DNA of 64,000 bases from contig JAHFFE010000004.1 of assembly GCA_023248155.1 (NCBI GenBank), positions 68,248 to 132,247 of the forward strand, in the 5' to 3' direction. The stretch comes from Candidatus Omnitrophota bacterium (GTDB taxonomy: Bacteria > Omnitrophota > Gorgyraeia > 1-14-0-20-64-10). The stretch's first letter is position 1. Every line of letters begins with the position of its first letter. A program made the position numbers and the translations under genes. The notes under the pieces are model-generated. The model saw only the letters and a program-made list of their open reading frames with translations. It was not told where the DNA came from and searched no databases. Below are positions 2 through 64,000 of this stretch, in pieces.

Positions 2-3000
2 GACTTTGACTTAATCGCCGACGGGAACGCCCATGAATACATTCTGTCCATGAATGACAGCGAACTGTGGAATGGCACCATTACCGGCCTCAAGATCGTA
101 CCCTCGGATGAACCCTCGCACTATGAAATCCTCGGTGCGGCGTCGCGCCAGTCGGTCGATCTTCCGGCCGGGTCCGAATGGGGTCTTTACGGGCCGAAAG
201 AAACCAGCAAGTTCCGCTATGCGGTCGTGGTTGATGGTGTTCAGAGGGGGACGTTCGATGTGCCCTGGAATAAGACGCAGGAGAAAGAAGGCTATGCGGA
301 AATCCAGCTCAACGCTGGTGCTCATCACATTGATATCGTTGAGATGAATTTTTACGACTATCCCTACGCTTCGATGGCGGCATTTAAATCCTATGTGTCC
401 AAGACTCTTGTACGCCGGATTATGCCGGCGGCGGATCTCAACGCGGATAATTATGTGAATGAGGCGGATGCGCGGATTCTGGATACGCTGCGCTCGCGTT
501 TCGAAGCGCCGAACGTTATCGGCCTGCAGGAAGAATTCTTCTCGATTTTGGATAACGGCGACCTGACGCACCGCTTTGTGTCGCGCACGGCGCAGGGCCG
601 CAGTTTTACAAGCGACCCGGCCACGGGGCAGGTCACCATTAATGGCGTCAAACTGCAACTCGGCTATGATGAAGAGCGCGAGCTCTGGCAGGCGTCGCTC
701 TTTGGCCGTGGCAGTGTCAACGTTTATGATCAGGTTCTGCAAATCGGCACTGAGAAAATAGGCGTTACGCGCCGCAAAGACGGCAGTCTTCTTTTCACGG
801 CCTTTGAGCGCACGGAGCCGGTGACTTTTGAATCCGATCCTGCGGCTGAACAAGTCACGATCGGCACGCAGACTTACCGTATTGAACGGGATCCGGAGAC
901 CCTGCAGGTGCGTTTGTTTGAAAGCGCAGAAACAGCGGGGCCCAGCGGCTGGCAGTCAGCCGTGGCCGGCGGCGTTGCCGTGTGGGTGCGGCGCGAAGCG
1001 AGCGGGCTTGTTTTCCGCACCGGCGGCGAAGACCTGGAATTTAACCCGGAAACACGCCGGCTTTCGATCCACGAGAAAAACTACACGCTTTTTGAAAACC
1101 GTCTGGGTCAGCTGACGCTGGTGGAAGTGGATCCGGCTGATCTGGACGGCGACGGCCTTGTGACTTTTGCCGATCAGGCCTTGATGAAAGCCTCGCTGGG
1201 CCGGCAGGCCGCATGGACGCTGGAAGCGATTCAGGCGCGCAATGTCGAAGGCTTTATCCGCGGCCAGCGCAGTGATCAACTGTTTGCGGTCTACGGCAGT
1301 TCGGAAAATTACCGCATGGATTTTGATCTTTTTGCCGACAGCGCCCAGCCGGCGGGGCTTGCTTATTACAACATTATGCTGCGCGCGCAAAGCTATGACC
1401 AAAAAGCCCTGCCCGCCGATTATGAATGGCAGCTTGCCGTCGCTGTTGACGGCGATGACCGCGGCATTGTGATCATTCCCGCGACGGCAGGAAGCGTCTC
1501 CGAGGAAAGCTTGCGCACGCTCATGGCCAACGGTGCGCATACGATCAGCCTGCGCTGGCTGAATCCGCGGCCGGGAACCAGCCTGGCCATCGACCGGTTG
1601 AGGGTCGCCGAAGAAGGCGTTGATCCGGAAGCCAACCTCGTGGTGCGTTCCGGAATTCCGGAGCAGGCGATTGGCGTGCAGACCGAACATTCGGGAGCCG
1701 GCGGACAACTCATCTTACGGACAGCGGCGGGGGAAACAGTTATAACAATTCCGGCGCAGATGCCCTGGCCCGGCCCGGATGATTTTTATTGGGCGGAAGT
1801 GGATGAAAATACGGGCGCCATTCTGCGCCAGGGTTCGCTGCGTTCCGAAGATGCAGACGAAACCGCGCAATTCCTGCTGGATGTGGAAACCCTGCCGGAA
1901 GGCCGCATCCTGGCCGCGGCTTCCTGGGACGGTTTGACGGTGACGCCGTCTTTAGCGCGCGCGCTGGAACGGCTGGGTTCAAAACTGATTCGCAGCATGG
2001 ATGGCGCGCATGAATGGGCTTTTGCCGGCGTCAAAGGACTCCCTCCAGGCAGTGCTTCGGAACAGATTCAGGCGTTAACTACGGGTGACAGCCGTTTGGA
2101 TTTTGATCTGGCCATAACCGGCGGCAGCCTTGAAGACCGCCTGCGGATCAACGCGGCGGACTATGCCGTCTTCCGCCAAGGCATGAGCGACACGGCTGAG
2201 ACTCAGGTCTTTACGCTGCAGGGCAAGGATTATTATGTCAGCGAAACTTCACCGGGAACTTTTGAAGTTTTTGACGGAATTTTGACGAGCGTGCAAAAAA
2301 TCGTGGACGGCCGTCCGGCGCTGGATCTGGGCAGCCGGAGTTTCTTTGTGGAGCGCGGCGTGAACGGCGCTATCCGCCTTGAGGGCATTCTTACCGGCGA
2401 TGTTTTTAGCGACGGTCAACTCGACGGCGCAGATCAGGACTTGCTTGCGGCCAGCCGCGGCCGGTTCAGTTTGGACCGCCGTGACGGCACCGTGATTTTC
2501 AACGAAAGCCAGCCGCTGGTTTATGCCGTCGAAGTGCCGGAAGACGGCCTGTATTCCGTGGGCCTGGCGGCGCGCAATTTCTTCAAGGCAGGCCTGGATT
2601 GGCAGATCGAAGTGGACGTCTATGTGGATGATGAGATTTATCCGCGGACTTCATTTGACGTGCCTGCCGGCCTCAAAGACACGGCAAATTATGTCAATGA
2701 CCTCGATTTGACGGCCGGAGCGCATACGATCCATTTTTACGTGCGCGACCTATACGGCGAGGGCGACCACATCACGCAGAATCCGCATCCTGATCTTGCG
2801 GACCAGCCGGCCGGAGTGGGTTCCGCGCTTCTAGCCGAAAATTTTATTTTCCGGGCGCAGGGTTACCGCAGTGACATGGATCTTAACCACAATCAAAGCA
2901 TTGACACAGGCGATGAAACGATTCTAGCGGGCTTGATTCTGGCCGGGCCGGTCAGCGTGCAGACGCTCGAGCCCCTGCCCGTGAAAGTCCTGCGTCTGGC

Positions 3001-6000
3001 CGGCAAGTTTTACCGGGTCGAAATTTCCGGCACTGCCGTGACGCTGGTCTCCGGCAGTGAAAGCATCACTACGGCCGTGGATGAAGTGATTGAGAAGAAC
3101 GGCGTGTATTACCGCCTGCTGCAAGATGCCGCCGGCGAACTGGCCTTGGCGCGGGAACCGTCCGTCTACGCGTTCCGCGATCCTGCGTTTGAATTCGGCG
3201 CGAGCCGGGCGCTAGACCGTCCTGTTGTTTACGTGCGCGGCCGTTATCTGGAAATCGATCGGGCACCGGACGGCCGCTGGCGCTTTAGCGATGCGGTTGG
3301 CGAATTCCTGTCCAATAGCGAAAAAACCGAAGTTCTGATCATCGACAAGCTTTTCAAAATCCAGGGCGCTCAGGCCGGCGAATTGTCCCTTGAAGAAGTC
3401 CACGCCGAAAGCCTGAAAACGGTGGATTTGGTGATCAATCTAACGGGGGAAGACTACAAGGTCCAGCGTGAAGGCAGCCAGTGGCGTTTTATCCTCGCGA
3501 CGAATGCGGCCGTGAGTTATCTCTCCGTCGACGGTGTGGTCACGATTCAAGACAGACCCTACGCCTTGCGCTGGGATGATCAGCTTCAAGAGTTAGTTGC
3601 GGGCAATCACCCTGTTATTTCCAGTGATCTGGCCGGCCAGTCGGTGGTGCTCGACGGAGTGCTCTATACGATTCGCATGGATACGGCCGATTCGATCAGC
3701 CTGCTGGGTGAAGGTCCGGATGCGCTCGCGGGCGGGACTGTCCCCGGAAACCTTACGCTGGCAGGGGCGGTTTATGCGGTCGAAAAACTCATCGACGGCC
3801 GTTATGTTTTCTCCGGTCAGGTGCAGAGCCGGCCGGCGGAAGAACCCATCCGGTTGTTTGACGGCAAGTTTTACAGCGTGGCGCATGACGGCGAGTATTT
3901 TACGCTCAGCCAAGGCGGAAAGAATTATTCCAATCGTCCGCGTTTAGCGAATTTGCCGGAAGTCGCATCGACCGGTGATTTAACCGCGTTTGAATACTTG
4001 AAAGACGGTACGGTGCGGCCGGAGATCAGCGATGTCTATGACTCTCAATCCGGCACGCTGACGTCCGGCGTTTTTACGGTTCCGGGGGATCAAAACTATA
4101 CGTGGACCTGGGAAATGGCCGCGGGCGGCGAGAGCGGTACCCTGAAAATTCTCAATGCATCCGGAACCGCTGCCCTGCAAGAAACCATCAGTGAATCCAT
4201 GATGTCGATGCCGGGCGGCTGGACTTTAAATTTTCTCAACCCGTTTATTTCGGGCAAGCATGCCGGCTATAAAGTCAGCTACAACACCGGAACGAATACG
4301 CTTACTCTCACGCCCGCCGGCATCACCGGCAATTTTACCGCGCCGGATGGAACGGCTTATCTTTGGGGCCTGACGCGGCATGAGCGCAAAGACTCCGGAG
4401 GGCAGCCGGATACGCTCAATGACGGTTATGTTTTCCGCCTGAGTCAAGCCGGCGGGACGGGCCTTTATGAAAAAACCGGTATCGTTGCGAAGTCTCAAGA
4501 ACTGAATGCGGATTTCACGGGTCTTGTTCAAATGGCCGGCTCGGGCTGGATGGTGCATCTGGATGAAAACAGCGGCAAACTGCGTTTTGATCCCAAGCAT
4601 TCGAGCGGGAGTTTCATTTCGGCTGTGGACGATGAGCGCTACATCTGGTCGATCGATTGGACCCAGACCGGAGAATTTATGAAGGGGTGGACCTTTACGC
4701 TGGAGGATGAGGCCGGCGTCAATACGTTTACGCGTTCCGGTACGCTGAACAGTGATCCGACTTTGGCGATGCCTGAGACGTTTCCACAGCCGTTTGAGGG
4801 TGTTTACGCGCTCGCGAATGCCGTGGAATATCAAATCAGCTTTGATCCGCAGACGAACCGTATGACCCTGGCGCCGCAGCGCGTGCTGGTGGAAGAAAGT
4901 TCTGACCGGATTTTGATTGACGGGCGCTGGTTTGCGATCAGCGGGACGGATACCGGCAGTCTTGTGCTGACGAATGAAATTTTGGAAGAGGCCGGTCAAT
5001 ACCGTTTAGCCGGCGAGCGTTATGCCCAGCAGGTTGAAACGAGCATGAACGAGATGGGTTTCCCCGGGCCGCAGGTGCTGGTGCTGACGGATGAAAACGG
5101 CCGGCGCTTTGAAAGCGTTTTGAATACCACATCCGCCGCGACCGGCCAATACGGGTATAACGCCTATGGTTACTGGGGGCCGATGTATCAATACACCCAT
5201 ACGTACACGGTCACGATCAAAAACATGACGTTTGAAGTGCGCCTGCCGCCCTATGATCCCTACGACTCCAATCCGCCGCCGCTTGAAAATTATACGCTCG
5301 TGCCGTATCAGGCCGCGGCCGTAACGGCGGTTGTGCCGGCGGGGACGCTGGTGAAAATCGGCGGCGCAATTTATGCGATTACCCCCAAGCCGGGCGTTGA
5401 AAATGTCTACCTGATTAGCGACGGCCAAACGCTGACGGAAGCTGGGCTTGGCGAGCCGGTGCGTTTGAATGGCATCGAATACGTCATCCGCCGCGCGCCT
5501 TCCGGAGCGCTCAGTATGATCCAGCAGGTGCAAACGCTGTCCGGGCACCAGGTGATTTTGGAAGGTGTCCGGTATTCGGTCGAAGAGCAGACGGGCCGGG
5601 TCATTCTCTCCGATGGTGTTCAGTCGTTTGAGTCCGATGACGCCAAAGCGAAGATTACGGTCAAAGACCGCCTTTATGATCTTGTGCGCACGGAAGCCGG
5701 CGCCCTGGTGCTGGTCGAATCCGGCGTGGTCCGCTCGTACCAAACCCTGGTTTTCCAAAATAAAACCTACGATGTCCTGCGCAATAGCGACGGTTCGATT
5801 TCGCTGCTCTATCACAAGGCAACGCATGGCACGTTGGCGCCAAAAGAATCCGTCCAGATGCCTGCGCAATTGCGCTATAAAGGCGGAAATTACACCGTGA
5901 GCACGCTGGAAGACGGCCGGCTTCAGATCGAAGGTCCCGAAGGTGTTTCCACCAGCGCGGCGGAAACGGGCCTGATTGATTTTGACGGGAAACTCTGGCA

Positions 6001-9000
6001 GGCCGTGCGGCTTGCGGACGGCCGCTGGACGATTGAGGGAACATTCGAAAGCGCTCCGGCCTCCGGCCAACCGCTGTTTTTTGACGGAAAGATTTACACG
6101 CTTGCCATGCAAGCCAATCAATTCGTGCTTTCCGACGGACGCGCTCACTATACGGCGGATGTCTCGGGTTTTGTGAATTTGAACGGCCGCACGTTCTTCT
6201 GGAGCGGGACCGGGCTGGAGGATTTCCAGATGTTCAACCGGCCGTATCTTGGCAGAACCGATACGGAAATCCAGCTTGAAGGTTTGAACCTGGCCTATCA
6301 GATTGAATATTCCATGATGACGGGCCCGGTCCTTAAAATCACGGATTCTGAACGCAATGCGGTTTATACCAGCTTTACGGATCAAACCAGGGCCTTCATG
6401 GATATCCGGGGCGTTCGCTACGAGATTACGGGCAGCTTGTATGACAGCTTCGGCGAGGGGTTTGGCCTGCGGCCGGCCGCCGGAAACGTGCCGGCTTCTG
6501 CGCCCGCCGAGGAAGGAACCCGGCTTGTGGTGGAAAACCGCATTCTCAGCGTAAGCCTCAAAGCGGGCACCGGCGATATCTATCTGGCGTCCGACGGTAC
6601 GGAGACGCTGGAAGTCCGGCTCGGTGAGACGCTCAACGTCAACGGCCTTCCTTATATGCTTAGTCTGCCAGCCTCCGGCGAACTCAAATTCAGCCTGAGC
6701 AGCCGCCAGATCAGTCTGGCGCAGTTGGGGCTGGATTCGACGTCCTATCTGGCTTTTGAAACCGCGGCCGGCGAATGGGCCTTCCAGGGAACTTACGATC
6801 CCACGGGTGAATTGAGCACAAGCACGGGCGGCGGCACGCTGGTCCAAATCGGCGATCTGAAATATCACATCGAACGCCTCCCTGACGGCGGCCTCAAACT
6901 GACCGAAACCGAAGACAGCGCGCCGGTGGTTTATGAAGATCAACTCTTCCGCAGCGACTTGCAGGCCCGCACGATCCGCATTTCCGGCAAGATCTACCGG
7001 CTCGCACTTGCGGCGGACGGGGACTGGGTCTTGAGTGAAGATTACGAAACTTCGCAGGCCCTGCAGCCGGCGGTGGAAATCGGCGGCCGCAAACTGCAGT
7101 ACCGTTTAGAAGACGCGCAGGTGATCTTGACGGACGGGAAAAACAGCTTCCGCAGCAGCCGCGACGGCTCAAACGTGACGATCGACCATCGCCGCTATGC
7201 GATCCAGCGCAGCGGCAGCGCGATTACGCTTTCCGAGCCGTCTCTGCCGTACAGCCAGACGATCGATGCGCTTGGCGCAATTTGGCTGATCCGCCGCGAC
7301 GCGTCCGGAAAAATCATGGCCGACAATCCCGAAACCCAGGAAACGTTTGCCGGCGATACGGCTGGTCTCGTGATTACGATTCGCGGCGTGCAGTTTGATA
7401 TCACGGGCGAGGAAGGCCGGCGGATTTTCACGCCGCGTATTTCAGCCGAACCCACCCTAGCCGACGGCGCTTTCTTGCTGGCCGGCCGGATGTTCTTTTA
7501 CAAGACCGAAGACGGGCAATTGACCGTGACGTATGCGGACAGCGGGGCCGCGGCCGGCGCAGCGGACGAAAATGCCGGACTGATCGAAATCGCCGGTACC
7601 GTTTATCAAGTGCAGCGCACGAGCGGCCGGCTTGAATTCCATAAGCAAGCCTTTGAAGAAGCTCAGGAAATTTCAGGAGCGGTGTTTTACATCAACGGAA
7701 CGATTTATGAGGTTCAGTATGATGAGACTGCCGGGTCTTTCGAAGTACGCAGCGGCCAGAAAACTTACACCAGCGATCCGGCCACGGGGCATATTTTGAT
7801 CGGCGAAATTGCGGCTGAAATCCGCCGCGATACCGCGAGCGGCGAAATTACGATCACGGTGCCCACAGCAGCCAGCGTCAAGCGCGCCGACCAGGCGGTT
7901 GAACTCAAGGGCCAGATTTATTGGCTGACGCGCCTGGAAGCCGGCCGGTACGAAGTTTATGATCCGGCTGCGAAAACGCCGCATGCGTCCCGCCTTGAAC
8001 AAATTGACGGCGTCTGGCTACCGGTGGTGGATCTGGCCGGCAGTGTTTACCGCGTGGTCGAAGACCGCGGTGAACGCATGCGTCTGGAAGAGGTGACAGA
8101 GGAATTTATTTCCGACGACCGCTTCAAGGTGCTGGCCGGCGGTAAGGAATACACGATCGGCCAGGATTCCGTGGATCAACGTTTCTATCTCGATGACGGC
8201 ACGCACCGTTTCTATGAAACCGGGGTGGATGGCATTATCAAGATCGGCGCTGATTCCTTTAGCGTGCGTGAACTGGCCGGCCGGCGCTTGTTTAATCCGG
8301 AGGTGGTCAAGCGCGCCGATCTGGATCAAAACGGCGAATTCAACGCCGAGGATGCGCGCATCTTGACGCGCCTGGCCAGCCACTACAAAGACATCAACGG
8401 CGACGGTCTGGTCGATCAGCAGGATATTGACGCGTTAAATAAAATTATTGATCTCACGCCTGAGATCCGTGATGCGGTGCCGGATGGTCAGATTACATCC
8501 GATGATTTTACTTCGCTTGACGTCAACCATGACCGCAAGATTGATTACCGCGATGCCAACGCGCTCAACCAGGTGGTGCAGAACCGCTTTGACATCAACC
8601 GCGACGGCCTCACCTCGAGCGGCTCCGGCGTTCCGGCGACGGATGACCTGGCATTTTTCAACGCCCTGTTTAGCCAGATCCGCCAGCTGCAGGCTCAGGG
8701 CATTGTGGTCGAGCCGGCCAAACTAAAAGCGCTGGATGTCAACAATGACGGGCTGGTGACGCATGAGGACGTGACGGCGCTTGGAAAAGTGATCGGCAAG
8801 AATTTCGATATCAATGGCGACGGCAAACTCGATGACCTGGCCAATCGCAAGGATGAAAAACGGCTCGACGATGTGATCAGCGCGCTCGCTTTGAAGATCA
8901 AACAGAACGAATTGACGCTGGCCGATGTGAACCGCAACGGCAAGGTCGATGACAAGGACCGCTCCGACCTTTCGGAATCGATCCGCAAGTATACCCAGCT

Positions 9001-57000: not shown

Positions 57001-60000
57001 CAAGGGCAAGATCACTCAGAATAGGGCAATCGGACTAGCGCTGCGCGAGGGTAAAAACCCCGCTGAGTACTGGGCTGAAGTCAAGGGCCGCAATGCCGCC
57101 GAAGTGCTCATCGAAAGTTTCGTCCAAACGCAGATCTCCAGCGGCAACTACAATAAGTTCGAAGCGTTGACGTCGATAGCCGATCCCGGGACCTCCGAGT
57201 GGGATGTACTCATGGCCCTGGAGAAATTTAGCTTTTCGGATAATTTAGACTTTTATACTAAAAGTGAAGGCGCCGTCACTGTCGATGCTCGCACGGCCGC
57301 CCGCATTCATCTTGCAGCGAAGGTTGGAGGAAACTCTGAAAAATTTGCCGCTGCCATGACGGAGAGAATTCAAGCCGAAAATGAAGCTAAGAATCTTTAC
57401 GCGAGTGGCCGCCTGCCCGTATTGAGAGAAAAAGTAGCGGATAGGGACAGAACGATGAGTGTCAAATCCGCTGATCTTGTGGCGCGTGATTTTGGCGCGG
57501 ATTTTTTTGCGGTGGAACGGACCGACACTCTCAAATCCGGCTGGGTTTCTGGGCTCAAACCTGAAGCCATCAAAGAAGGGGCGAAATTTGAGGACATCTT
57601 CCAGGAGGGAGTAAGAGGCACAGCGCTTGAAGGCTCTAGGGTCAGAGTTTCCGATTGGAAAACGATTTCAGAGACAAAAGCGACCGATGCGATGGCCGCG
57701 GTCAACAAAGCTCTGGACGGTAAGTTTGAGGCTGAAGCGACTGAGTTTATTTTGGCGGTGTTCCAGAGTCATCTTAATTCGTCGATGGCGGCCGGGTTTA
57801 AGGCGGAACTTGCGAAGTATGGCGATAACGATGCTGCCCATGATGCAGTCTATAAACAGCTGGATGCTGATTTTGCCAAAAATAAAGCCAATGTCCGGGC
57901 GCGAGAAATGGTACTTCATGCTGAAAATGTTGCGGCAGAGCGCTACCAAAAATATCTGGATACGCTCGATTCCGCTGCCCGCAAAGCCGAATTGATAAAA
58001 ATCCCCGAGGAAGTCGATGCGGCAGGCGACACACCGGCCGGGATCGCCCAGCGGGCCCGCTGGCTTGTGGGAAGCCGCGAGCTCACCAAAATAAGTGCGC
58101 ATGAAGCCGCGGAGGCCGTAAAAGCCGCCTATGAAAAGGCCACTCCCTTCGAGACGATTGTGGGCGATAAGTTTGAAAATACTCGCGAGGTGTCACATCA
58201 GACCGAGAGTACGCTCAAAGTCAAAACGCTGCCCAAAGAACTGACGGAAAACTCAGCGGGTCACATCGCGGATGCTTTCAAGAATAATCCAGGGGTGCGC
58301 GAAGTAATCCTTGTAACCTTCAGCGAAACCAAACCCAGCAAAATGCTGCCTAAAAATGCTACCGCCGTTCAACATACCCAGCATGCAAAATATGTTGAGA
58401 AAATTGCGATTGTTGCGCTCAAGGATTCCATGCGCCCGGGTGGCACCAAATTCTCCAAAACGGAAGCTCTGGCACTTGAGAAGTTATTGAACTCAGGCTG
58501 CGGAAGCAGCTGTGCTCAAAGGGGTGCGTTCGGCAAAGATCTAAAGAAAGCTTTAACCGAAGCCGGTTTTATTCTGGGTAAGGCCTTGGCTGCGGACAAT
58601 CATAACCTGCTTAGGATCGGCGGCATGGTCGTTCTGCCGGATGACTTGAACGACCTGGATGCGCTTTCAGGCCGGCTGATCGCCGAGGCGCGGAATGACT
58701 TTTCCACGTTCGGAACCGGTGTTCGCGGTATGGAAACCCTGCGCACGGCGGTCAGAGTCTACGACTCGCTTGCGCCGACGGGCCAAAGTAACAGGGCAAA
58801 AGTTTTCTCATTTGCGCAAGCCTACTACCGCGCGGGCGCTCTCTCGGCCGGCACTGAGCAAAATAAACAGCGGCGAACGGCCCTAGACGCTCTGACAAAG
58901 CTTCTGGTGAATGTCCAGGAAAGCAAAGGCAGGACGGTCTCGGCGGCTGAGGCTAGGTCACTGCGTGTCGATGCCTTGGTGATCTTAAGAGCATTTTCCG
59001 GCGAGACGCGTGCGGCGCAGCGCTTAGCGCTTCAAGAGATCGGTGCCTTGGGCAAGGACGGTCTGGTCAAGGGCGGTAATATTTTTAATTGGGCGGAGAG
59101 TAAGATTTCTGAAGCGGATTTTAATAAATTGAGTACAGGTGCAAAAGCGAAGGCGATCGCGGACGGCAAAGTACAGCTCCAGAAAAAAACGGGAATCCAA
59201 TTTGAAAGCTTGACCAGTCTGATCAAAAGCGAATCCGGGGTCCTTCAGCTCGGAACTGCCGGCGGTAAAACCAGCGTGCTGACACCCGGTCTTACCAAGA
59301 TTATGAATCGCCTTGGCGTGCACACCGTCCAGTTTTTCCCCTCCGAGTTCCTTAAGCAGGCCGGTTTTGCGGCTGCCAGCTCGCAAGCGAGCAATACGAA
59401 AAAAATTGATCTGTTGGAGGGCGACATTTCACGATTAAACGGGCGGCTTACTAAAACAGAAGGGGCCGCGCGTCTCAAGCTCCAGGGGGAAATCGAAAAT
59501 CTGGAAGGTCTCAAGTCACTGCTGGAAGCAGGGATGAGTATTGTGGTTTTTGACTCGAAGAAATTTTATAAAGCGGGCGAAACGGCCTATCGGGAGCAAG
59601 TGCTCAAAGCGGATGTTTTGGTCGCTGATTTCAATGATACGAAAAGCGGTCTGTTGGAAGTCCGGTCGACCCGCGATTCGGCGCGCATGAACAACGTCGA
59701 AGCCGTCGGCCGTTATGATGCCGGCTTGCGGCTGCAAGATCGCATTGCGCGTTCGCAGCTTTTAATCGACGAAGTTGACCAATTGGTGGACGTTCCCTCA
59801 ACAACAACGGCGGCCTTTGGCGTTGAAGGCGGCGTGACCAAACGGGCGATTGACGTCGACAAAACCAGCGTGCGTGACGTAGACACGGTCGTCAAGGTCT
59901 TGGTCGACAAAGGCTATGCCAAATTTGAAAATAATAAACTCAAACTGACTAAGACGGGTGAGAGTAGTATTTTTGGAGCAGACGGCCGGGATATTAACGG

Positions 60001-63000
60001 CATTAATTTCAAAACGACCGCTGTGGATGATGTTTTGGGAACACTGGGCTTTGAGAGAAGTTCGAATCGCGGCCAGCAGTTTGCGAAAACGCTGGAAGGC
60101 GTTGCGCAAGGTTTGAAATTTAGCGCGCGTCAGGTGGCCTTCGGTCAAAAAGGTACAAATAAGTTTCATCCGGTCGCTGAAAACGGTGAAACCTCGGTCG
60201 ATCAGGTTTTTGCGGGCGCGCGCCGCGCTGCGGCTTACGATATCGTGGGCCGTTTGCGTGAGGGCATCAGCCATGACGGCATAGGCTCAGCCGTCTACCG
60301 CAATGTCGGCGATGTCGCGAAACTGGTGAATCTGCGCGAGAGTAAAGTTGAAGTCCAGGAAAGCGCGGTCACCGTCAGTGTGGCGGATGCTTTCCGCGAA
60401 CTGCGCAAGCTTGCCGGCGGCAATCTGATGATCCGCGGCTTTTCGGGCAATGCCACGGTGGCGCGCGAGCGTTTGGCACTGAATCTTGGGGTTGATTTTA
60501 TCGGCAAATTCGATGGGATTGAGAATGGCCGGTTCTATACGCTCAAGCAAACGCCGGGTCAAACCGGCTTCCGGCTGCGCAGCAACGCGTTAAACCATAA
60601 TTTCCATGGGACGATTGATGGCGCGCTGAACCGGATTACAGCGACCACCATCAGCCGGAATAAAAATATTTTGATTCAGGATATCACCGGCGAGGGCTAT
60701 AACGCGGTTTGGGATGCAACCGCCCGCAGATTGAGTGATCTGGGCCGCACGGCGACCGATAAAACGCTGTTTGTCGTCATGCTGCCGGAAAAAGGAAGCG
60801 TGGCCGTATTTACCGACTTTGCTGCGTTTAAAGCCAAGGATTTCAGCAAGTCCACGGAAGTGAAGTCAGTCAAGAATAAAATAACCGGCGAGCTTGATCT
60901 TGTAGTGGACATTAAGGGCCAGGAAATACAGTTCAATCGATTGCTGGGCGGCTATGAGGCCGGCAAAGGCCCTTTAGAAGCGCTAGGCTTTGACCGTGTG
61001 GTTGAGATTCAGAGCATGCCCGCGACGCGCGGTACCGACCAGCGCTTTGACGTGCAGAATTCAGCCGGCAAGTGGCAAGCCAATGTCCACCGCATCTTAC
61101 TGGTGGATCGCAATACGACTTTTGACTCGCTTGAGCAGGCCTTGGGCCGTGACCGCGGGTTAGGCAATTTGACGCTCGACCGCGCGACGCTCTCAGACAC
61201 GATTTCCGTGATTGATGCCAACCCCAATGCGCTGCGGGCCGAGTTCAGCAAACTGGGCGGGGGCGACAACGTCATCGGCTTGGTACGGTTCACCCATGAA
61301 ACGCTGCGCGCAAATATCCGCGAAGGCATTCTTAGCGATGGCTTGACCGCCTTGCGCGATGCACCCGGCCGTTTGTTGGGTGAAATTGAGACGGCGTTGA
61401 ATCAAACCTCCCAGGGCGGCGGCTTGGGCGGTGTAAAGGGCGCGGCGAAGGGCGATGTGACGGCGGCTCTGGCCTCTTTTGCGGCTTTGCGGAAGCAGGT
61501 GGAGGCAAAAGGCGATGACCTTACGACAGCCTTCAAGGGGACAGTCAAATCGGACCTAAAGTTCAACGACACCGCCAAGCAGTTTCACCAGTTGACGGTG
61601 GATCTGCTGCGTGGGACGGGAGATTTTAAGGGCACGGGGGTCGACTTGATCAAGGCCCTGGAAAATGCGGGCGCTAAAGAGCTGGCCGGCCGGTTGACGC
61701 GCGATGTTTTGAATGTGGACGCTAAATCGCTTGAGCTTAAGTTTGACGAGGTGACGGGCGCGGTCGAAGGGGCCGGACGCGGCGCCCGTTTCCTGGCCGA
61801 TGCCGATGTGTTTACGGTACGCGATACGGTTCAGGCCTTCCGTAATTCTCTGCATGATCTTTCCACGCGTCAAATTGAAGTCGGCGATAACGTTAAAGGC
61901 CGCACGACGGCTGAAACTTCGGGATTTAAAAGCGCGCGCGATCTTTTGCCGGATTTCACTTCGGCCAATCGCGCGGTGACTGCGGCGGTGCGTGTCGAAG
62001 TGAAGGCAACCGAAGGGTTGGCCCGCACCGAGGTAGGCAAAAAGTTGATTGATGCCTCCAGCGCCAAATATAGCGAGGCTTACCAAAAGACCATTGTAAC
62101 GGAGGTCACGGCAGCCCAAAAAGCGCCGGGCGCTACCGCCGCCACGATTGCTGCAGCCCGTCAAGCGGCCGAGACCAAAGCGGATGAGGCGGGGCGCGCC
62201 GCGTCAGCCACGCGGTTTTATGTGCCGAATGCCCATGAAATTCATGTGGAGGTGGGCGGCCAGGTGCTCGTGTTTAATGTGGCTGATCCTGGTGCCGTTG
62301 CCGCTGCCAATCAACTCGATTATGAAACCGCCGCCATGATTCGCAATGCCGTGCCGGCGGGTTCGGTGAATGGATTTGTAAGCGCGCAGTTTGATGTGGC
62401 GGCTAACCAGTTTGTCTTTTCGGCGGATATTTTGACGGATTTTCAATTTCAGCGTTCCGGCACAAAACTGCCGGCGGCAGATTTCTTCCGCCAGATCGTG
62501 ACCCCGCAGACCCAGCCGGGGACCAGCGGCTTCGCGAACTTTAATCGCGTTGATTTTGGCGCGACTGCGGATACTCGCAGGACCAGCCTGGAGAAGCATT
62601 TGGCGGCTCTAGCGGCTGGGAAAATCCCGTCGGCTCCCGGCATCGATGGGACAACTTTGCCTCACCAAACGCTGGTCTTGCCCGATACGGACACCGTGAT
62701 TGACGTGCCGAATGTGGGCGCTATTGCGATTAAGGGCGGGACTAAGATTTTTGTTCATGCGGATGGCACGGTGAGCATTCCGGCCGGCGCATTTGCCGAC
62801 GATGATTTTAGAATCCCGGGATTCAAGTTAATTCCGACGGCGGATGCGGCGATTGTGGTGCGCGCAACCGGGGCAACGGTTCTACGGTTAGGGCCTGGAA
62901 CGCAGTCGTCTTTTGATTTTGGCGGGGTTGCCATTCCGAATCTGCCGGAGGGGACTGAAATTGAATTTATTAAAAATACCGTGAGTGCCATTAATTTACC

Positions 63001-64000
63001 CGCGGAATCTTCTGTCTCGATCACAGTGGCGGGTACAAGATTCACATTGCCTCCCAATACCCGGATTATCCCAAGCGACATTCCACAACAAACCCAGTTT
63101 GAGCTTCCGGACGGCCGGGTTATGGTGGTTAAAATTGATGCGGTGACTAAAAAACCCGTGCCCGTATTGGCCAGCGTCAATCTGCCGGACTTTGCAACCG
63201 TCGATACGGTCTGGGTGACGGATGCCGGCGCCATTAAAACATTCCGCAAAGTGGAAACGCCCGTCAATATTGACATTGGAACCCGCAAAGTGATTCTGCC
63301 GGCGGGCGTTTTTGTAGAAACCGATCTCGCCGGAAAAATTCTCCGGATCGCGATACCTGAAAATGTAACTTTAACTACTGCCCAGCTGCCGGCCCTGACC
63401 ATTCTTCAGAAGCAAGGCGTGAAGGTTGTTTCTGTCCACGGCGTCGATGACAAAATAGGAACTGTGACTGCGATTCGAGTGAACGCCTCAAGCTTGGACC
63501 TGGATGATTTGAATGTCATCCAAAGCCTGCAAGCCACAGGAGTGAACGTGTCTTTAGTCCGTCTGCCCGCAGACACGCGTCTGGATATTAACATTCCGCC
63601 AAGCCTGGCGGGTCTCAACGACGCGCATCTGGCTGCGCTGGAAACGCTTCAGGGGCTTGGAGTGCCATATCAACTCAGCGGTGCTTCGGGCAGTGTGCAT
63701 TTGACGCTGACGACTATTCCACCCGGGTTAAACCTTGTCGAACTGTCTGAGGCCGGCTTGGATGTCCGCGTCAACCTGACAAAAATTCCTGACAAAAGCC
63801 AATGGAGTGATCAGACAGCGAAGGCGTTTAAAGCGGCCGGTGGAAAACTGATTGTGAATCTCGGCTCTTTGAATGGTGTGTCGCTTGCTGATTTGCGTGA
63901 CTTTGCCGCTCGTGATGCCGGAACAATCAATTTGAATCTGATTCAGATTGACGCAAGCTCTTTTGTTGCGCTGGCAGATCTTTCGGGAACAAAAAATATT
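2..64000 (+). CDS. Internal fragment of a single giant ORF (21,333 in-window codons; 5' and 3' ends outside window) encoding a multidomain, probably cell-surface/membrane-associated giant protein
   Basis: I translated frame +2 across the whole window (2-10,150; 10,150-35,700; 35,700-48,000; 48,000-64,000) and met no stop codon. No + ORF in the supplied track has start mod 3 = 2, so frame 2 has no stop; otherwise an ATG(50)-to-stop ORF would be listed. Coding-like codon usage with GC-rich third positions (ctg, gcc, ggc, ccg) throughout. Recognisable protein motifs run collinearly along the frame. First in-frame Met is at nt 50, but there is no upstream stop, so it is not a start. Confidence 0.9.
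212..2760 (+). repeat. Three tandem ~400-aa globular modules sharing a conserved core [YW]-x-[LV]-x-V-x-VDG...(V/I)P...AGAHTI-x-[LF]
   Basis: FRYAVVVDGVQRG...LNAGAHHIDIVEMNFYDY at about nt 212-360. YEWQLAVAVDGDDRG...MANGAHTISLRWLNPRPG at about nt 1418-1580. DWQIEVDVYVDDEIY...LTAGAHTIHFYVRDLYG at about nt 2596-2760. Spacing is about 1,200 nt (400 aa). Beta-rich composition, possibly carbohydrate-binding-like. Confidence 0.5.
2950..8290 (+). repeat. Array of about 35 degenerate ~30-36-aa beta-hairpin modules with consensus [VIL]-x-[VIL]-x-G-x-x-[YF]-x-[VIL]-x(4-6)-G-x-[VIL]-x-[VIL]; predicted beta-solenoid or beaded beta-sandwich stalk
   Basis: Examples read in frame: LRLAGKFYRVEISGTAVTLV; VVLDGVLYTIRMDTADSISLL; ITVKDRLYDLVRTEAGALVLV; LFFDGKIYTLAMQANQFVLSDG; IRISGKIYRLALAADGDWVLS; IEIAGTVYQVQRTSGRLEF; FYINGTIYEVQYDETAGSFEV; VELKGQIYWLTRLEAGRYEV; VLAGGKEYTIGQDSVDQRFYL. 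Confidence 0.6.
8310..9265 (+). repeat. Dockerin type-I-like / EF-hand-like Ca-binding repeat array 1 (about 9 copies of D-[VIL]-[ND]-x-[DN]-G-x-[VI]-[DN]-x-x-D with following helix)
   Basis: ADLDQNGEFNAEDARIL; DINGDGLVDQQDIDALNKII; LDVNHDRKIDYRDANAL; FDINRDGLTSS; LDVNNDGLVTHEDVTALGKVI; FDINGDGKLDDLANRKD; ADVNRNGKVDDKDRSDLSESI; ADINNDGRVDDRDWRTLEQGL; DVNEDGRIDSKDSEVLERYL. Confidence 0.7.
9300..10860 (+). repeat. Second block of the G-x-x-Y beta-hairpin modules (about 13 copies)
   Basis: IVEIGEHIYDIYEDPDGKIRLV; VIRLGEREYDAYFKDYGRFEF; VIELEGKRYEVVNHFDGSYTF; VKLDGIYYDIHEDPLTGHVQL; VTIRGRVYDVIENSYSGSITL; VIELNGKNYFVRENTQDGITEF. Confidence 0.55.
10880..11450 (+). other. Concanavalin-A-like / LamG jelly-roll domain (DUF1080-like, 3-keto-disaccharide-hydrolase-type lectin fold)
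   Basis: WQDASIDFTKDKMPQGWAPETGSWRIMAGRAESLVQ...TDFTLSVDLSFEI...WEGSVLFNV...YAARLFERGG...YRMQIRVESGKITLAMNDQPLLEAQDHYFTGGAVALAGKGRDVQFDNIVLH. The start (W..G.W....G.L), middle and C-terminal GG-x-[IV]-[AG]-L...-x-V-x-F-[RD]-N-I motif are laid out as in DUF1080/LamG domains. Confidence 0.5.
11641..11780 (+). other. Gly-rich flexible acidic linker
   Basis: AQGGTAGLGASGGEGEGSFAGGESAGGGAGMPAGGETGAGSGTSYQVSEDEG. Confidence 0.7.
11850..13830 (+). repeat. Dockerin/EF-hand-like Ca-binding repeat array 2 (about 18 copies, ~22-37 aa period)
   Basis: VDITGDGRGDIADIKRIQ; ADVTGDGKVTDADWKAIE; SDVTQDGVTDYRDVEAI; ADLNHNGALDAADVAQL; LDLDFDGKIVLADELAAF; ADIDQDGLITPADLRIYEKL; FDLTNDGVVDGSDEQRMVDLL; GDINRDGITDSRDLDLYTLI; ADVNGDGLIDEKDLARAREV; FDLNQDGKVDDSDLAALMTAI; HDVNADGAVNQTDVDLFDRMI; ADIDHSGAFDAGDVTNF; RDVTGDKRLDSADLLAV; ADLTRDNVIDSADSAFLAQAI; ADIDQDNLIGARDYAGLL; ADVTGDGKVDANDLKDLRRLV; ADVTRDRKVDVADVTKVIESV; FDITGDRMVNALDEQALFF. 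Confidence 0.7.
14282..14323 (+). repeat. In-frame palindromic element copy 1: CAGGGACAGGTCC-16 nt-GGACCTGTCCCTG (perfect 13-bp inverted repeat), encoding QGQVQPGTQPDLSL
   Basis: Read directly from nt 14282-14294 and 14311-14323; the arms are exact reverse complements. Total length 42 nt, a multiple of 3, starting on a codon boundary. Confidence 0.8.
16280..16360 (+). repeat. In-frame palindromic element copy 2: CAGGGACAAGTCC-55 nt loop-GGACCTGTCCCTG (12/13 complementary); loop contains a 21-nt imperfect direct repeat GGTCCAGTTAGC[CG]GCTCA
   Basis: nt 16280-16292 and 16348-16360, encoding QGQVQLAAQVPGTQGEVQLAAQMDLSL. 81 nt, a multiple of 3, on a codon boundary. Confidence 0.75.
16766..16803 (+). 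repeat. In-frame palindromic element copy 3: CAGGGACAGGTCC-13 nt-GGACCTGTCCCT (12-13 bp stem)
   Basis: nt 16766-16778 and 16792-16803, encoding QGQVQTTQQDLSL. 39 nt, a multiple of 3, on a codon boundary. Confidence 0.75.
24146..24580 (+). other. C39-like (bacteriocin-processing peptidase / papain-fold) domain, probably a non-catalytic 'C39-like domain' variant
   Basis: About 145 aa: KYLSEQSLHFGISAFTALSFML...(about 70 aa)...LPAIIHLDGDHFAVLEKADAENVTVREYTGDSFALSVAEFVKHWDGFVMS. The C-terminal block matches the C39 signature G-x-HF(V/A)VL...DP/E...(F/L)...W-x-G-x-(V/L). The N-terminal Q-x(5)-[DC]G motif is present, but the position of the catalytic Cys (DCGxAAL) is occupied by HFGISAF, so there is no Cys. 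Confidence 0.5.
25444..25770 (+). repeat. Dockerin/EF-hand-like Ca-binding repeat cluster 3 (4 copies) plus an isolated copy at about 27,250-27,300 (LDTDGDVDYDDLNVLKT)
   Basis: ADVNRDGSVTAADVTALNLAM; DDINLDGVVDLLDKAIWQQLL; GDVDADSQLDSDDVSLFRSYL; VNVDQDPAGLVDSSDVLAVSNYV. Confidence 0.6.
27560..28050 (+). other. Small beta-rich globular domain inserted in the helical region
   Basis: RISGELDRAAAPGTYNQVAVSFAAPMPEFRVGTTTFKFPFHLRIGNEIFGMRAGDHTVTPEIMNQAFTFYKLYDVVDVTLPDGSIIGYNQPVTTLAAMNPFVSYYDIPTGEHRVNVGPITYRLDEGLTGLWLRLE. The composition changes abruptly to aromatic- and Pro/Gly-containing beta-type sequence. Confidence 0.4.
32100..35700 (+). other. About 1,200-aa Pro/Thr/Asn/Gly-rich beta-type globular region (several domains), with a Cys-bracketed loop (LCQGPTVPPVCQ, nt 34351-34395)
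   Basis: VIPAGFPIQNNTVYEWFPAPATPPAVTPKWYDLQAGSINFSAPASNFVPGQAYVIMRYVKHP; KLYLYLPVHVGEIFADVNGDGYLGLETDPELMVWQDGQLVDIKARD; TFEGDTVNYNVLKHVEVTYELENGETFTSRGETTGFVSD. Confidence 0.4.
35700..43550 (+). other. Mixed region: predominantly charged alpha-helical/coiled-coil segments with small interspersed globular inserts. Includes an E/R/K-rich single-alpha-helix-like stretch at nt 41341-41470
   Basis: For example LEEEAAIRDAEIAGNLAKVQALLAAYNTANANSDLSQADKDRAYQLWKSAREQLNELYIQRFG; FQALEEEKQRRRLEKEAEVRLRNQLKDLAKKPAEIKFQMEKF; DLAALRSQMSETDSQISGINLKISELEETYKRIGG. Small beta/Cys-containing insert at 38,700-38,930 (LCPAGSTDDEIDIDCVRRDSKGKIMTDIHGNVMYIPFEKNAVGYVEG). Confidence 0.4.
45098..45960 (+). repeat. 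Tandem duplication of a ~145-aa module: FTWGQDF-x-F...FKCHIN-x-AGGCDV-[ST]-D followed by thrombospondin-type-3-like acidic Ca-binding loops (D/N-x-D/N-G-N-x-x-LD-P-x-ED)
   Basis: Copy 1, nt about 45098-45530: NFTWGQDFVFTVRG...FKCHINAAGGCDVSDP...TEDRDGDGLLDGSEDANGNNVLDPGEDTLPFNGVLDPSEDTNGNAALDQ...HGTLVLEGDEV. Copy 2, nt about 45533-45960: FYFTWGQDFEFSYLW...FKCHINVAGGCDVTDL...DEDRPALLFPNGNDLLDPSEDINNNGILDLGEDIFAPIGVLNLAEDINQNGRIDV...RGTLILRRNEIV. Period 436 nt. Nucleotide identity is visibly partial, e.g. tttaaatgccatatcaa[tc]g[ct]ggc[tc]ggcggctg[tc]ga[ct]gt. Confidence 0.7.
46019..46232 (+). repeat. YD/RHS-like repeats (2-3 copies)
   Basis: TSYTDSEGRRLKAVDAFGNVTRYFYRRDPLSGAVLTDVRTGQPLETYVLDANNNITILGAEGERLAFIDF. 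This follows the YD-repeat pattern G-x-x-[TS]-x-Y-x-[YT]-D-x-x-G-R-L-x-x-V-x-D-x-x-G-N-x-T-x-Y-x-Y. Confidence 0.45.
48000..55190 (+). other. About 2,400-aa mixed alpha/beta globular region of unknown function (several domains). Includes a hydrophobic/Gly stretch (nt 48361-48466) and a Gly6 hinge (nt 53344-53364)
   Basis: For example NIVNTIVYSAAVMATNIWGGGGLGAASMDGALIAP; KFLYGGGGGGLAKTNN; HALMDGDYQYSATADVSDNKVLS; KIKTTLKIDGVKTTLGFIYDEVTETYTDLEGKPLTGKGLGDKWLIDGLLDGTLSITILDEADGLEGEISGPL. Confidence 0.3.
55195..56930 (+). other. Polytopic membrane segment: about 10-14 predicted transmembrane helices, Gly/Ala/Phe/Leu-rich with many small-xxx-small motifs
   Basis: Hydrophobic runs of 18-25 aa separated by short polar loops: TAGTILAWTLGLGLLALAAFFLVPLAGAFIAAGGILWGIFAAGAVLFAGTAFVAAVAGLWMGASLG; YLINFAMTLMLSAGIGSSSFAV; AFLIEAAISVFAGAAAQLFFFMW; GMNGFLFFIVMSALFGPTAI; LDFLIIQGGAGLLIRFAAQWIP; AGAFILKAASIAFIRLPTILVNYLISAVGQGIGWAAFGVVLTAIG; VWTFFTSLGSGFLAVGSALYQFLGTLLWSPFALF; LNGFLIGNLFTIFGPSVTGGFGRFLAGL; VEAWFMALISKIGLGGLMRLG; GVFGLLQLPFISHFSGLLLNPITFLGSAFFVEHIVPFLG; LVLQVALLFGVTGLL; NLFFFLLP. 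Confidence 0.65.
59200..61200 (+). other. SecA-like / SF2 DEAD-type ATPase motor domain (two RecA-like lobes) embedded in the giant protein
   Basis: Collinear motifs in frame 2. Motif I (Walker A) LQLGTAGGKTSVLT at nt 59252-59275 (SecA: EMKTGEGKTLVAT), followed by GVHTV (SecA: GVHVV). Motif II LLIDEVDQLVD, with DEVD at nt 59768-59779 (SecA: VDEVDSILIDEA). Motif III IRGFSGNATVARE at nt 60437-60457 (SecA: LAGMTGTADTE). Motif V QSMPATRGTDQ at nt 61016-61042 (SecA: TNMAGRGTDI). Motif VI SLEQALGRDRGLGN at nt 61130-61168 (SecA: NQLRGRSGRQG). The DEVD and RGTD variants are characteristic of SecA rather than generic DEAD-box helicases. Confidence 0.6.
62700..64000 (+). other. Beta-type tandem modules followed by a Leu-rich-repeat-like segment; continues beyond window
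   Basis: IKGGTKIFVHADGTVSIPAGAFADDDFRIPGFKLIPTADAAIVVRATGATVLRLGPGTQSSFDFGGVAIPNLPEGTEIEFI... then LDLDDLNVIQSLQATGVNVSLVRLPADTRLDINIPPSLAGLNDAHLAALETLQGLGV...LNLVELSEAGLDVRVNLTKIP...LIVNLGSLNGVSLADLRDFAARDAGTINLNLIQIDASSFVALADLSG, which has LxxLxLxxN periodicity. Confidence 0.35.

Follow-up and report, generated by a model that had tools for sequence, protein, structure and literature searches.

A 64-kb internal slice of one Omnitrophota gene probably encodes a membrane-anchored, calcium-binding giant protein of the Dockerin-type class with a SecA-like motor

The stretch of DNA analysed here, referred to as the window, comprises 64,000 nucleotides of contig JAHFFE010000004.1 (positions 68,248 to 132,247 of the forward strand) in the Candidatus Omnitrophota bacterium assembly GCA_023248155.1. 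A single open reading frame (ORF) on the plus strand occupies it from end to end, as had been proposed in an original prediction made from the letters alone. The encoded protein opens with a mixed beta and Ca2+-binding region (residues 1 to about 4,700), continues through a helix-prone spacer and a long stretch that resists annotation, and then reaches a cluster of transmembrane (TM) segments, which is followed by a basic linker, a P-loop ATPase module of the superfamily 2 (SF2) type and a tail (Table 1). We read this layout, with a probability of roughly 0.7, as a giant membrane-anchored Ca2+-binding surface protein of the Dockerin-type class that carries a SecA-like motor. Throughout the text, residue N of the frame begins at nucleotide 2+3(N-1).

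Frame +2, whose first codon starts at nucleotide 2, is free of stops over 21,333 codons, where about 829 stops would be expected from the base composition (log10 P(0) = -367). The five other frames contain between 263 and 1141 stops each. The GC contents of the three codon positions (GC1/GC2/GC3) are approximately 0.60/0.42/0.65 and uniform over the full length of the window. The uniform codon-position pattern and the lack of stops together indicate that the whole stretch is one coding sequence, and because the frame passes both ends of the window, the gene must be longer than 64 kb. We conclude that the gene is real and that the window covers an internal part of it. A decayed relic, which the prediction had named as its refuting alternative, is contradicted by the same stop statistics as well as by the motifs of the ATPase, which are intact and conserved in relatives. 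Neither tandem nor long direct DNA repeats were found in the window. The only direct repeats are short segments coding for Ca2+-binding loops and cysteine loops, with copies 61-82% identical, and the internal protein repeats have diverged to 22-33% identity in self-BLAST comparisons. The lack of tandem or long DNA repeats and the age of the protein repeats thus exclude recent repeat expansion, or the collapse of a repeat, as the source of the size.

Some further features of the nucleotide sequence were observed. No tRNA and no Rfam family lies within the window. The minus strand contains 31 ORFs of 150-645 residues (for example, 5006-6943, 48386-49777, and 28811-30025), all of them in the codon-aligned antisense frame. 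That frame has just 263 stops, the usual shadow of a GC3-rich gene, and the minus-strand ORFs were rejected as genes. The GC content drops near the middle of the window, from about 0.58-0.60 in nucleotides 1-32000 to about 0.53-0.55 in nucleotides 32001-64000, and GC3 declines from 0.66 to 0.53 toward the 3' end. This shift partly follows the Ala-rich spacer, and no further signs of chimerism were found.

The assignment to the Dockerin-type class starts from the N-terminal region. Pfam detected 17 Dockerin_1 stretches within residues 2,501-5,000 (E values of 2e-53 to 2e-55) as well as EF-hand_7 (E 1e-13) and EF-hand_1 (E 1e-6). Dockerin-type Ca2+ loops occur 19 times in the frame compared with 0.46 in shuffled sequences, and several are paired about 24 residues apart in the manner of type I dockerins, which bears out the dockerin-like arrays of the prediction. 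Upstream of them lies an ILEI domain, which is of the carbohydrate-binding type and belongs to the domains reported for Dockerin-type giants in the literature (West-Roberts et al. 2023, bioRxiv 10.1101/2023.11.21.568195).

At the other end of the frame, the membrane region is the sole strong hydrophobic cluster among 21,333 residues, confirming a predicted TM bundle. The 200 residues preceding it are acidic (D+E 15.4%, K+R 8.0%). The acidic upstream and basic downstream flanks count in favor of a membrane-anchored protein.

The ATPase module follows the linker. Its motifs I, Ia, II, III, V, and VI follow the order and spacing of SecA. Motifs I, II, III, V, and VI are each present once, and their ordered chain would be expected by chance only 2e-9 times. 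Neither DEVD nor G[MF][ST]G.A occurs more than once among the 21,333 residues, and both lie within the motor. In alignments, the wording of the motifs is of the SecA type (GEGKT, VNDYLAxRD, DEVDS, GMTGTA, GRGTDI, GRSGRQG) and not of the DEAD-box type (DEAD, SAT, ARGxD). Motifs II and III are separated by 222 residues in the motor, compared with about 180 in Escherichia coli SecA and about 31 in DEAD-box helicases. In SecA, this gap is the site of the inserted preprotein cross-linking domain (PPXD).

Profile alignment points in the same direction at low confidence. We compared a three-member motor profile, built from the window and the two relatives described below, with an alignment of 11 diverse SecA sequences using hhalign. 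The weak alignment is colinear over SecA residues 89-411 (296-298 columns; probability 1.4-1.5%, score 28.3, E 0.038) and passes through Walker A, motif Ia, DEVD, the insertion, and GMTGTA, with the II-III insertion placed colinearly, again at low confidence, on SecA residues 220-375. The score of 28.3 lies above all 31 controls, namely 30 column shuffles with a maximum of 22.6 and the reversed query with 20.4.

Table 1. Features of the window, ordered by position; all coordinates refer to the window
Feature	Residues	Nucleotides	Strand	Evidence and remarks
Single ORF, 21,333 codons		2..64000	+	Open at both window ends; internal slice of a gene >64 kb
ILEI domain	600-679	1799..2038	+	Pfam PF15711, E 1e-7 to 2e-7, 32-33 bits vs cut-off 27
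Beta-rich region	~1251-3577	3752..10732	+	Diverged repeats of ~120 and ~300 residues, 22-33% identity (self-BLAST, alignments)
Dockerin type I array 1	2753-3120	8258..9361	+	Pfam Dockerin_1, best stretch residues 2795-2857; paired Ca2+ loops ~24 residues apart
Dockerin/EF-hand array 2	3923-4607	11768..13822	+	Pfam Dockerin_1/EF-hand; self-similar to array 1
Ala/Leu/Glu-rich, Gly/Pro-poor spacer	~4500-10,500 (borders approximate)	13499..31501	+	Ala 14-25%, Leu 11-14%
C39-like domain	8108-8190	24323..24571	+	Pfam PF03412, E 9e-10, 38.9 bits vs cut-off 22
Isolated dockerin module	~8474-8530	25421..25591	+	Ca2+ loops at 8483 and 8507; Dockerin_1 sub-threshold, E 0.0017; loop motifs; DNA repeat family D1
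Unannotatable stretch, ~7,900 residues, mixed composition	~10,500-18,400	31502..55201	+	11 of 13 close Cys pairs, ~146-residue repeat, TSP3-like loops at 15,050-15,700; DNA repeat families D2 and D3
Polytopic membrane region, ~8-12 hydrophobic segments	18,402-18,945	55205..56836	+	Kyte-Doolittle scans
Lys/Arg-rich linker	18,946-19,734	56837..59203	+	K+R 14.2% over ~790 residues; holds CGSSC
SF2/SecA-like P-loop ATPase module	~19,735-20,400	59204..61201	+	Motifs, spacing, conservation in two relatives
Motif I, LGTAGGKTS	GGKTS at 19754	59252-59275	+	Sequence motif
Motif Ia, VQFFPSEFLKQ			+	Sequence motif
Motif II, LLIDEVDQL	DEVD at 19923	59762-59785	+	Sequence motif
Motif III, RGFSGNA	GFSGNA at 20146	60434-60454	+	Sequence motif
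Motif V, ATRGTDQ	RGTD at 20343	61022-61042	+	Sequence motif
Motif VI, LGRDRGL	GRDRG at 20382	61142-61162	+	Sequence motif
Tail after the motor, runs past the window end	20,401-21,333	61202..64000	+	Sequence reading, composition; relative P0001 alignable to residue 20,655

The motor is a near-orphan, for which public data yielded two relatives. When 1.84 billion representative proteins were scanned in full with HMMER, one match was returned, a protein of 1,039 residues from run SRR3989338 (P0001; 32% identical, E 1e-32). Among genomes, with each of 185,579 species represented once, one locus was found (L001), a 14-kb contig of an uncultured bacterial metagenome-assembled genome (CAZKMJ010000042.1) in which a single open frame of 4,502 codons, TM-rich at its start, takes up almost the whole length. 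Its motor, with a canonical GSGKTS Walker A and a DEVDQ, lies about 1,200 residues after that start, and more than 2,600 codons follow. The motor motifs are invariant in all three sequences. Only the motor aligns between this locus and the window (residues 1193-1873 with residues 19,733-20,389), whereas membrane region, linker, and tail do not, although the locus is likewise TM-rich upstream of its motor. A search for the combined TM and SecA-like cassette in other giant genes had been suggested as a check of the prediction; it is the motor that the two relatives share, and the TM region cannot be aligned. The conservation of the motor, as opposed to the TM region and tails, marks it as the part under the strongest constraint and argues for a working enzyme. 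No relatives of the motor were found in JGI (Joint Genome Institute) metagenomes, IMG/VR, or plasmids. Word-index homologue searches with the TM and motor cassette and with two motor alignments returned nothing, one of them at E<=10, and neither relative gave a Pfam match.

Two side observations concern the neighborhood of such motors. Within nucleotides 1-700 of the L001 contig, frame +1 is open from the first nucleotide to nucleotide 654 and frame +3 is open from nucleotide 519 to the contig end. A masked run of 10 Ns lies at nucleotides 615-624, at the TM-rich region, and the contig coverage is 4.6x. Two explanations fit the frame change, a frameshift error and a true gene boundary, and the latter would make the TM and motor cassette a possible separate gene. 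On plasmid CP084574.1 of a Rickettsia endosymbiont, a SecA-like stretch (H39, 26% identical) lies inside a hypothetical protein of about 1,475 residues, and two other plasmid matches (H31 and H35) are truncated SecA-like genes in which the match overlaps features annotated as prepilin peptidase. Fusion or linkage of a SecA-like motor to other machinery may be a more widespread arrangement.

We read the module as an SF2 ATPase and most likely a strongly diverged SecA derivative, on the strength of its motifs, their spacing, and its place in the architecture and not of significant profile similarity. Several results weigh against this view and against the assignment of the whole protein. Pfam gave no SecA match (PF07517 SecA_DEAD or PF01043 SecA_PP_bind) at E<=10, and neither did NCBIfam at E<=1 or the PDB at E<=10, by sequence (phmmer) or by profile. 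The hhalign probability between motor and SecA is just 1.5%, while a positive control of SecA against DEAD-box helicases with the same alignments reached 97.9% (E 4e-13); the motor is thus much farther from SecA than SecA is from the DEAD-box helicases. The second nucleotide-binding domain (NBD2) alone aligned in the right register (RGTD on RGTD, GRDRG on GRSGRQG), but its score of 16.7 was matched by 5 of 30 shuffles. AlphaFold yielded no usable model of the motor, with a predicted local distance difference test (pLDDT) score of 34.6 from the single sequence and 38.6 with one homologue, and Foldseek with the latter model returned only noise. Homology to SecA is not statistically established. 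The SecA-type motor of the original prediction consequently holds in the order and spacing of its motifs and not in any Pfam, NCBIfam, or PDB match. The membrane topology has been called from hydropathy and general rules rather than by a dedicated predictor. Finally, TSP3 repeats, a hallmark of the published class that had also been predicted here, gave no Pfam match at E<=0.01 anywhere in the frame or at E<=5 in residues 1-5000; motif searches found only three or four TSP3-like loops, at residue 9,086 and around residues 15,090-15,700.

The same shortfalls lend themselves to another explanation, in which the C-terminal ATPase is not derived from SecA and represents a separate, unrecognised family of membrane-tethered SF2-like nucleoside triphosphatases or a generic helicase-like module, with a job other than translocation, such as signalling, exerting force on the filament, or remodelling. 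No profile method recognised SecA, its helical scaffold, helical wing, and C-terminal linker found no counterpart past SecA residue ~583, and the relatives are few, one in 1.84 billion representative proteins and one in 185,579 genomes. The hhalign probability was 1.5% to SecA and 2.1% to five E. coli DEAD-box helicases, with which just 19 columns around Walker A aligned, compared with 97.9% between SecA and the DEAD-box helicases. We nevertheless consider an origin outside SecA unlikely, because the wording is SecA-specific (DEVD instead of DEAD, G-x-[ST]-G-x-A instead of SAT, RGTD instead of ARGxD), because the 222-residue gap occupies the position of the PPXD insertion, and because in the published giants a long-branch SecA_DEAD domain likewise comes immediately behind the TM anchor.

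The remaining N-terminal modules fit the architecture to different degrees. A lectin-like jelly roll had been predicted and was not confirmed, as Pfam offered only sub-threshold hints of CBM_35 (E 0.077) and DUF1080, a 3-keto-disaccharide hydrolase family (E 0.061); discoidin and GNAT domains had no Pfam match. The predicted YD repeats did not hold up either. Pfam found no RHS_repeat/YD at E<=0.01 over the whole frame, nor at E<=5 over residues 1-5000, the canonical YxYDxxG motif occurs once, and a canonical RHS/YD protein was therefore rejected. Instead, a non-canonical hairpin motif, h-x-h-x-G-x-x-Y-x-h...D-G-x-h-x-h, is repeated at least 15 times in the beta-rich region, within residues 1,251-3,577, compared with 0.03 in shuffles. 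This motif resembles the canonical YD motif yet differs from it, and it was probably the source of the YD call. A profile of the beta repeats had no match in the PDB, and sequence and profile searches of the PDB with the N-terminal 5,000 residues gave no meaningful match. With no GGxGxD nonapeptide in the frame, we also rejected an adhesin of the repeats-in-toxin (RTX) type.

The spacer of about 6,000 residues has a composition that favors helices, as judged by helix propensity and a 3.6-residue periodicity, and apart from the C39 and dockerin islands Pfam found nothing in it. A helical stalk over residues ~4,500-10,500, which the prediction had called very long and helical, is plausible on the strength of composition alone. 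Within the spacer, the PF03412 match covers profile positions 45-129 of 133, and the NCBIfam C39-type matches fall at residues 8110-8191. The domain retains the His in GDHFAVL, but LHFGISAF stands at the position of the C39 signature sdCGlaaL, so that the catalytic Cys is absent, and there is no Cys in the frame between residues 3220 and 11453. Lacking the Cys of the Cys-His dyad, it is not an active C39 protease but a non-catalytic C39-like domain of the type known as CLD. Without a Cys it cannot itself cleave the giant protein. The prediction of a substrate-binding C39-like domain is accordingly supported in its non-catalytic character, while cleavage into fragments by this domain is not, and neither is its placing next to the TM bundle, which lies about 10,000 residues downstream. 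Sequence and profile searches of the PDB with the C39 region gave no meaningful match.

The middle of the protein is nearly devoid of annotation. Pfam found no family at E<=1 apart from noise in residues 9,801-18,400 (nucleotides 29402-55201), a stretch of 8,600 residues that is among the longest without a Pfam match likely to be met in one protein. A repeat of about 146 residues occurs at nucleotides 45161-47120 (residues ~15,054-15,707). Its conserved Cys loop, FKCHINxAGGCDV, precedes acidic loops of the TSP3-like kind, among them EDRDGDGLLDGSE and EDANGNNVLDPGE, and the repeat is the sole site where a duplication is still visible in the DNA (82% identity). The frame contains 26 cysteines, all arranged as 13 close pairs 4-13 residues apart (for example, residues 11454/11463, 12658/12663, and 15056/15064) between residues 3212 and 19504 (nucleotides ~9635-58513). 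Twelve of the 13 pairs precede the TM region, and one follows it (CGSSC, residues 19500/19504). These close pairs look like short disulfide loops of extracellular domains.

At permissive thresholds, Pfam and NCBIfam returned nothing relevant for the motor, the TM region, or the tail, and the C-terminal 2,633 residues had no meaningful match in the PDB by sequence or profile. The last ~450 residues of the tail are beta-rich and then turn into a Leu-rich repeat of about 45-50 residues, L..L..LQ..GV.V. The repeat, with the fuller consensus L..L..LQ..GV.V.L, occupies the last ~230 residues (residues ~21,100-21,333, nucleotides ~63300-64000), presumably lies on the cytoplasmic side, and matches no family.

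Taken as a membrane-anchored surface protein with a SecA-like motor, the molecule could work as follows. The dockerin and EF-hand modules together with the close Cys pairs suggest that the first ~18,400 residues are extracytoplasmic, where they would form a long attachment or docking filament stiffened by Ca2+, binding glycans or cohesin-like partners on another cell or polymer. The TM cluster would anchor the protein in the cytoplasmic membrane. As the ATPase must face the cytoplasm, the N-terminus would be outside and the C-terminus inside, which implies an odd number of TM spans and leaves both ATPase and tail in the cytoplasm. Tethering by the TM region might replace the missing scaffold and wing of SecA, and the motor would use ATP to thread or insert giant polypeptides. 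Translation reaches the motor last, by our estimate about 20-25 min behind the N-terminus if elongation proceeds at a typical bacterial rate, so that it cannot pull co-translationally on the N-terminus of the same chain. More plausibly it would work in trans, either on newly synthesised copies or on accessory substrates, and less so in cis on the chain to which it belongs. Once outside, the chain would fold in a Ca2+-dependent manner, which could make its export irreversible. A role in predation is a hypothesis of the literature, and no lytic, toxin, lysin, or peptidoglycan hydrolase domain was detectable in the window.

Two other accounts accept the domains and differ in what they do. The first treats the chain as a polyprotein that is cleaved into separately acting products, such as an ATPase in the membrane and an adhesin or scaffold that is set free. 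The modules are indeed very unlike in nature and lie thousands of residues apart, and cleavage of giant proteins has been raised as an open question (West-Roberts et al., 2023). However, the sole protease-like domain has no Cys within 3,000 residues and is not a processing enzyme, and no other peptidase domain was detected. The frame change at the TM region of the L001 locus, if it were a gene boundary, would suggest that the cassette can stand alone, but it sits beside the masked run in low coverage and may be an error. On balance, we do not expect the protein to be a polyprotein.

The second account sees a cellulosome-like scaffold, or an enzyme-docking platform, with which a free-living cell degrades polysaccharides, rather than an attach-and-attack device. 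Type I dockerins are the docking module of cellulosomes, and the ILEI domain, the weak CBM_35 and DUF1080 hints, and the missing toxin, lysin, and peptidoglycan hydrolase domains are all in keeping with such a platform. Among 21,333 residues, however, no cohesin, glycoside hydrolase, or other carbohydrate-active enzyme domain was detected, and the published class has been tied to ultra-small, host-dependent bacteria. We regard a purely degradative scaffold as improbable, while at the level of architecture it is compatible with the surface-protein reading and does not exclude it.

A bolder version of the surface-protein reading takes the TM and ATPase cassette as more than a drifted SecA. Its membrane-tethered SF2 motors would form a family of their own that has hardly been sampled, with three known members, none of them seen by Pfam, NCBIfam, or PDB profiles, and with conservation confined to the motor, and the family would serve as a self-encoded machine dedicated to exporting or assembling chains tens of thousands of residues long. 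If this were true, a secretion route would be built into its own substrate and might exist as a separate gene in some lineages, as the frame break of L001 would allow; we consider it a long shot. Least credible is that the giant frame is an artefact of chimeric assembly, a collapsed repeat, or a decaying pseudogene: the drop in GC from ~0.59 to ~0.54 near nucleotide 32,000 and the failure to find near-identical sequence with an exact 36-mer in the genome and metagenome collections searched speak for it, but the stop-free frame, the uniform GC1/GC2/GC3 pattern, the lack of tandem or long direct DNA repeats, the old internal protein repeats, the intact and conserved ATPase motifs, and a GC shift that follows amino-acid composition in the Ala-rich spacer as much as GC3 make it very improbable.

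To our knowledge, a gene this large ranks with the largest of any organism, and no protein encoded by such a gene has been biochemically characterised. By what route a cell exports and anchors a protein of over 20,000 residues is an open question, and about 60% of the present protein matches no known domain. Conceptually, the example adds little because its layout has already been published. It does illustrate that a C-terminal motor can drift past every standard profile and yet keep all its catalytic motifs, so that surveys counting SecA_DEAD matches probably undercount the cassette. With about 670 residues, the motor is small enough to be expressed, assayed for ATPase activity, and studied structurally.

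Two classes of giants have been defined, the Dockerin-type giants and the archaeovorins (West-Roberts et al., 2023). According to that study, which includes 46 giants, full-length giant genes have many TM regions, and most have divergent SecA DEAD domains that form a separate, very long-branched clade and are without scaffold and wing. The adjacent TM regions may supply the membrane anchor, and the SecA domains may serve in the export of the giant itself or of accessory proteins. Dockerin-type giants have many dockerin, EF-hand, and TSP3 repeats together with ILEI, DUF1080, and CBM35-like elements; most of their N-terminal part is TM-free, and C39-like domains were found in one case. The class was defined at a length of at least 30,000 residues, and its further traits are an Omnitrophota genome with a type II/IV secretion-like locus upstream and pilZ downstream (West-Roberts et al., 2023). 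A 2026 preprint (10.64898/2026.06.07.730766) describes 916 long Omnitrophota proteins, 21 of them dockerin-bearing, with architecture clusters on Peptidase_C39 and SecA_DEAD, the SecA_DEAD group numbering 20 proteins.

The window protein is most likely a new, very divergent member of the Dockerin-type class, whose architecture was described in 2023. The comparison with Omnitrophota giant proteins in the original prediction was apt, while its embedded motor, presented there as a new twist, had already been reported as the combination of TM regions and a divergent SecA. With Dockerin-type giants such as CAILPI010000004_73, the window shares dockerin and EF-hand repeats, ILEI, weak CBM35/DUF1080 hints, a C39-like domain, a long TM-free N-terminal part, and mostly unannotatable sequence. 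As in those giants, the sole TM cluster precedes an ATPase with SecA motifs, the relation to SecA being at the motif level only. Unlike in those giants, TSP3, discoidin, GNAT, and SecA_DEAD/SecA_PP_bind were not detected by Pfam, and the motor is far more divergent, as its hhalign probability to SecA indicates. The window protein is known as at least 21,333 residues, with both gene ends outside, against the class definition of at least 30,000. Archaeovorins of the Velamenicoccus archaeovorus type (39,678 residues) likewise have one giant ORF, TM regions with a divergent SecA-like domain, C39-like domains, and a proposed role in cell contact. They differ in having HEAT repeats, glycosyl transferases and hydrolases, methyltransferases, NUDIX, and TM helices along their length, and in having no dockerins (West-Roberts et al., 2023); none of the archaeovorin-type enzymes was detected in the window.

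Among smaller systems, SecA (PF07517/PF01043) shares with the window motor the motifs I (GxGKT), Ia, II (DEVD), III (G-x-[ST]-G-x-A), V (RGTD), and VI (GRxxG) in order as well as the long II-III insertion. The window motor differs from it in lying below every profile threshold, in the missing scaffold, wing, and C-terminal linker, in an NBD2 about 80 residues longer between motifs III and V, and in being fused behind a polytopic TM region within a protein of more than 21,000 residues. The C39-like domain resembles the HlyB-type CLD of type I secretion ATP-binding cassette (ABC) transporters in its C39 signature with a replaced catalytic Cys, which predicts binding and not cleavage. Unlike the HlyB-type domain, it has no ABC transporter attached, lies in a presumably extracellular spacer, and is not accompanied by RTX repeats. 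Giant adhesins with RTX or bacterial immunoglobulin-like (BIg) repeats, of the LapA, SiiE, and MpIBP types, are also very long Ca2+-binding repeat filaments, and the role in attachment is presumed to be common to them and the window protein, which has neither RTX or BIg repeats nor tandem repeats at the DNA level. Whereas these adhesins are exported with the C-terminus first through a route of ABC transporter, membrane fusion protein (MFP), and TolC, the window protein carries its own TM bundle as an anchor and an ATPase at its C-terminal end.

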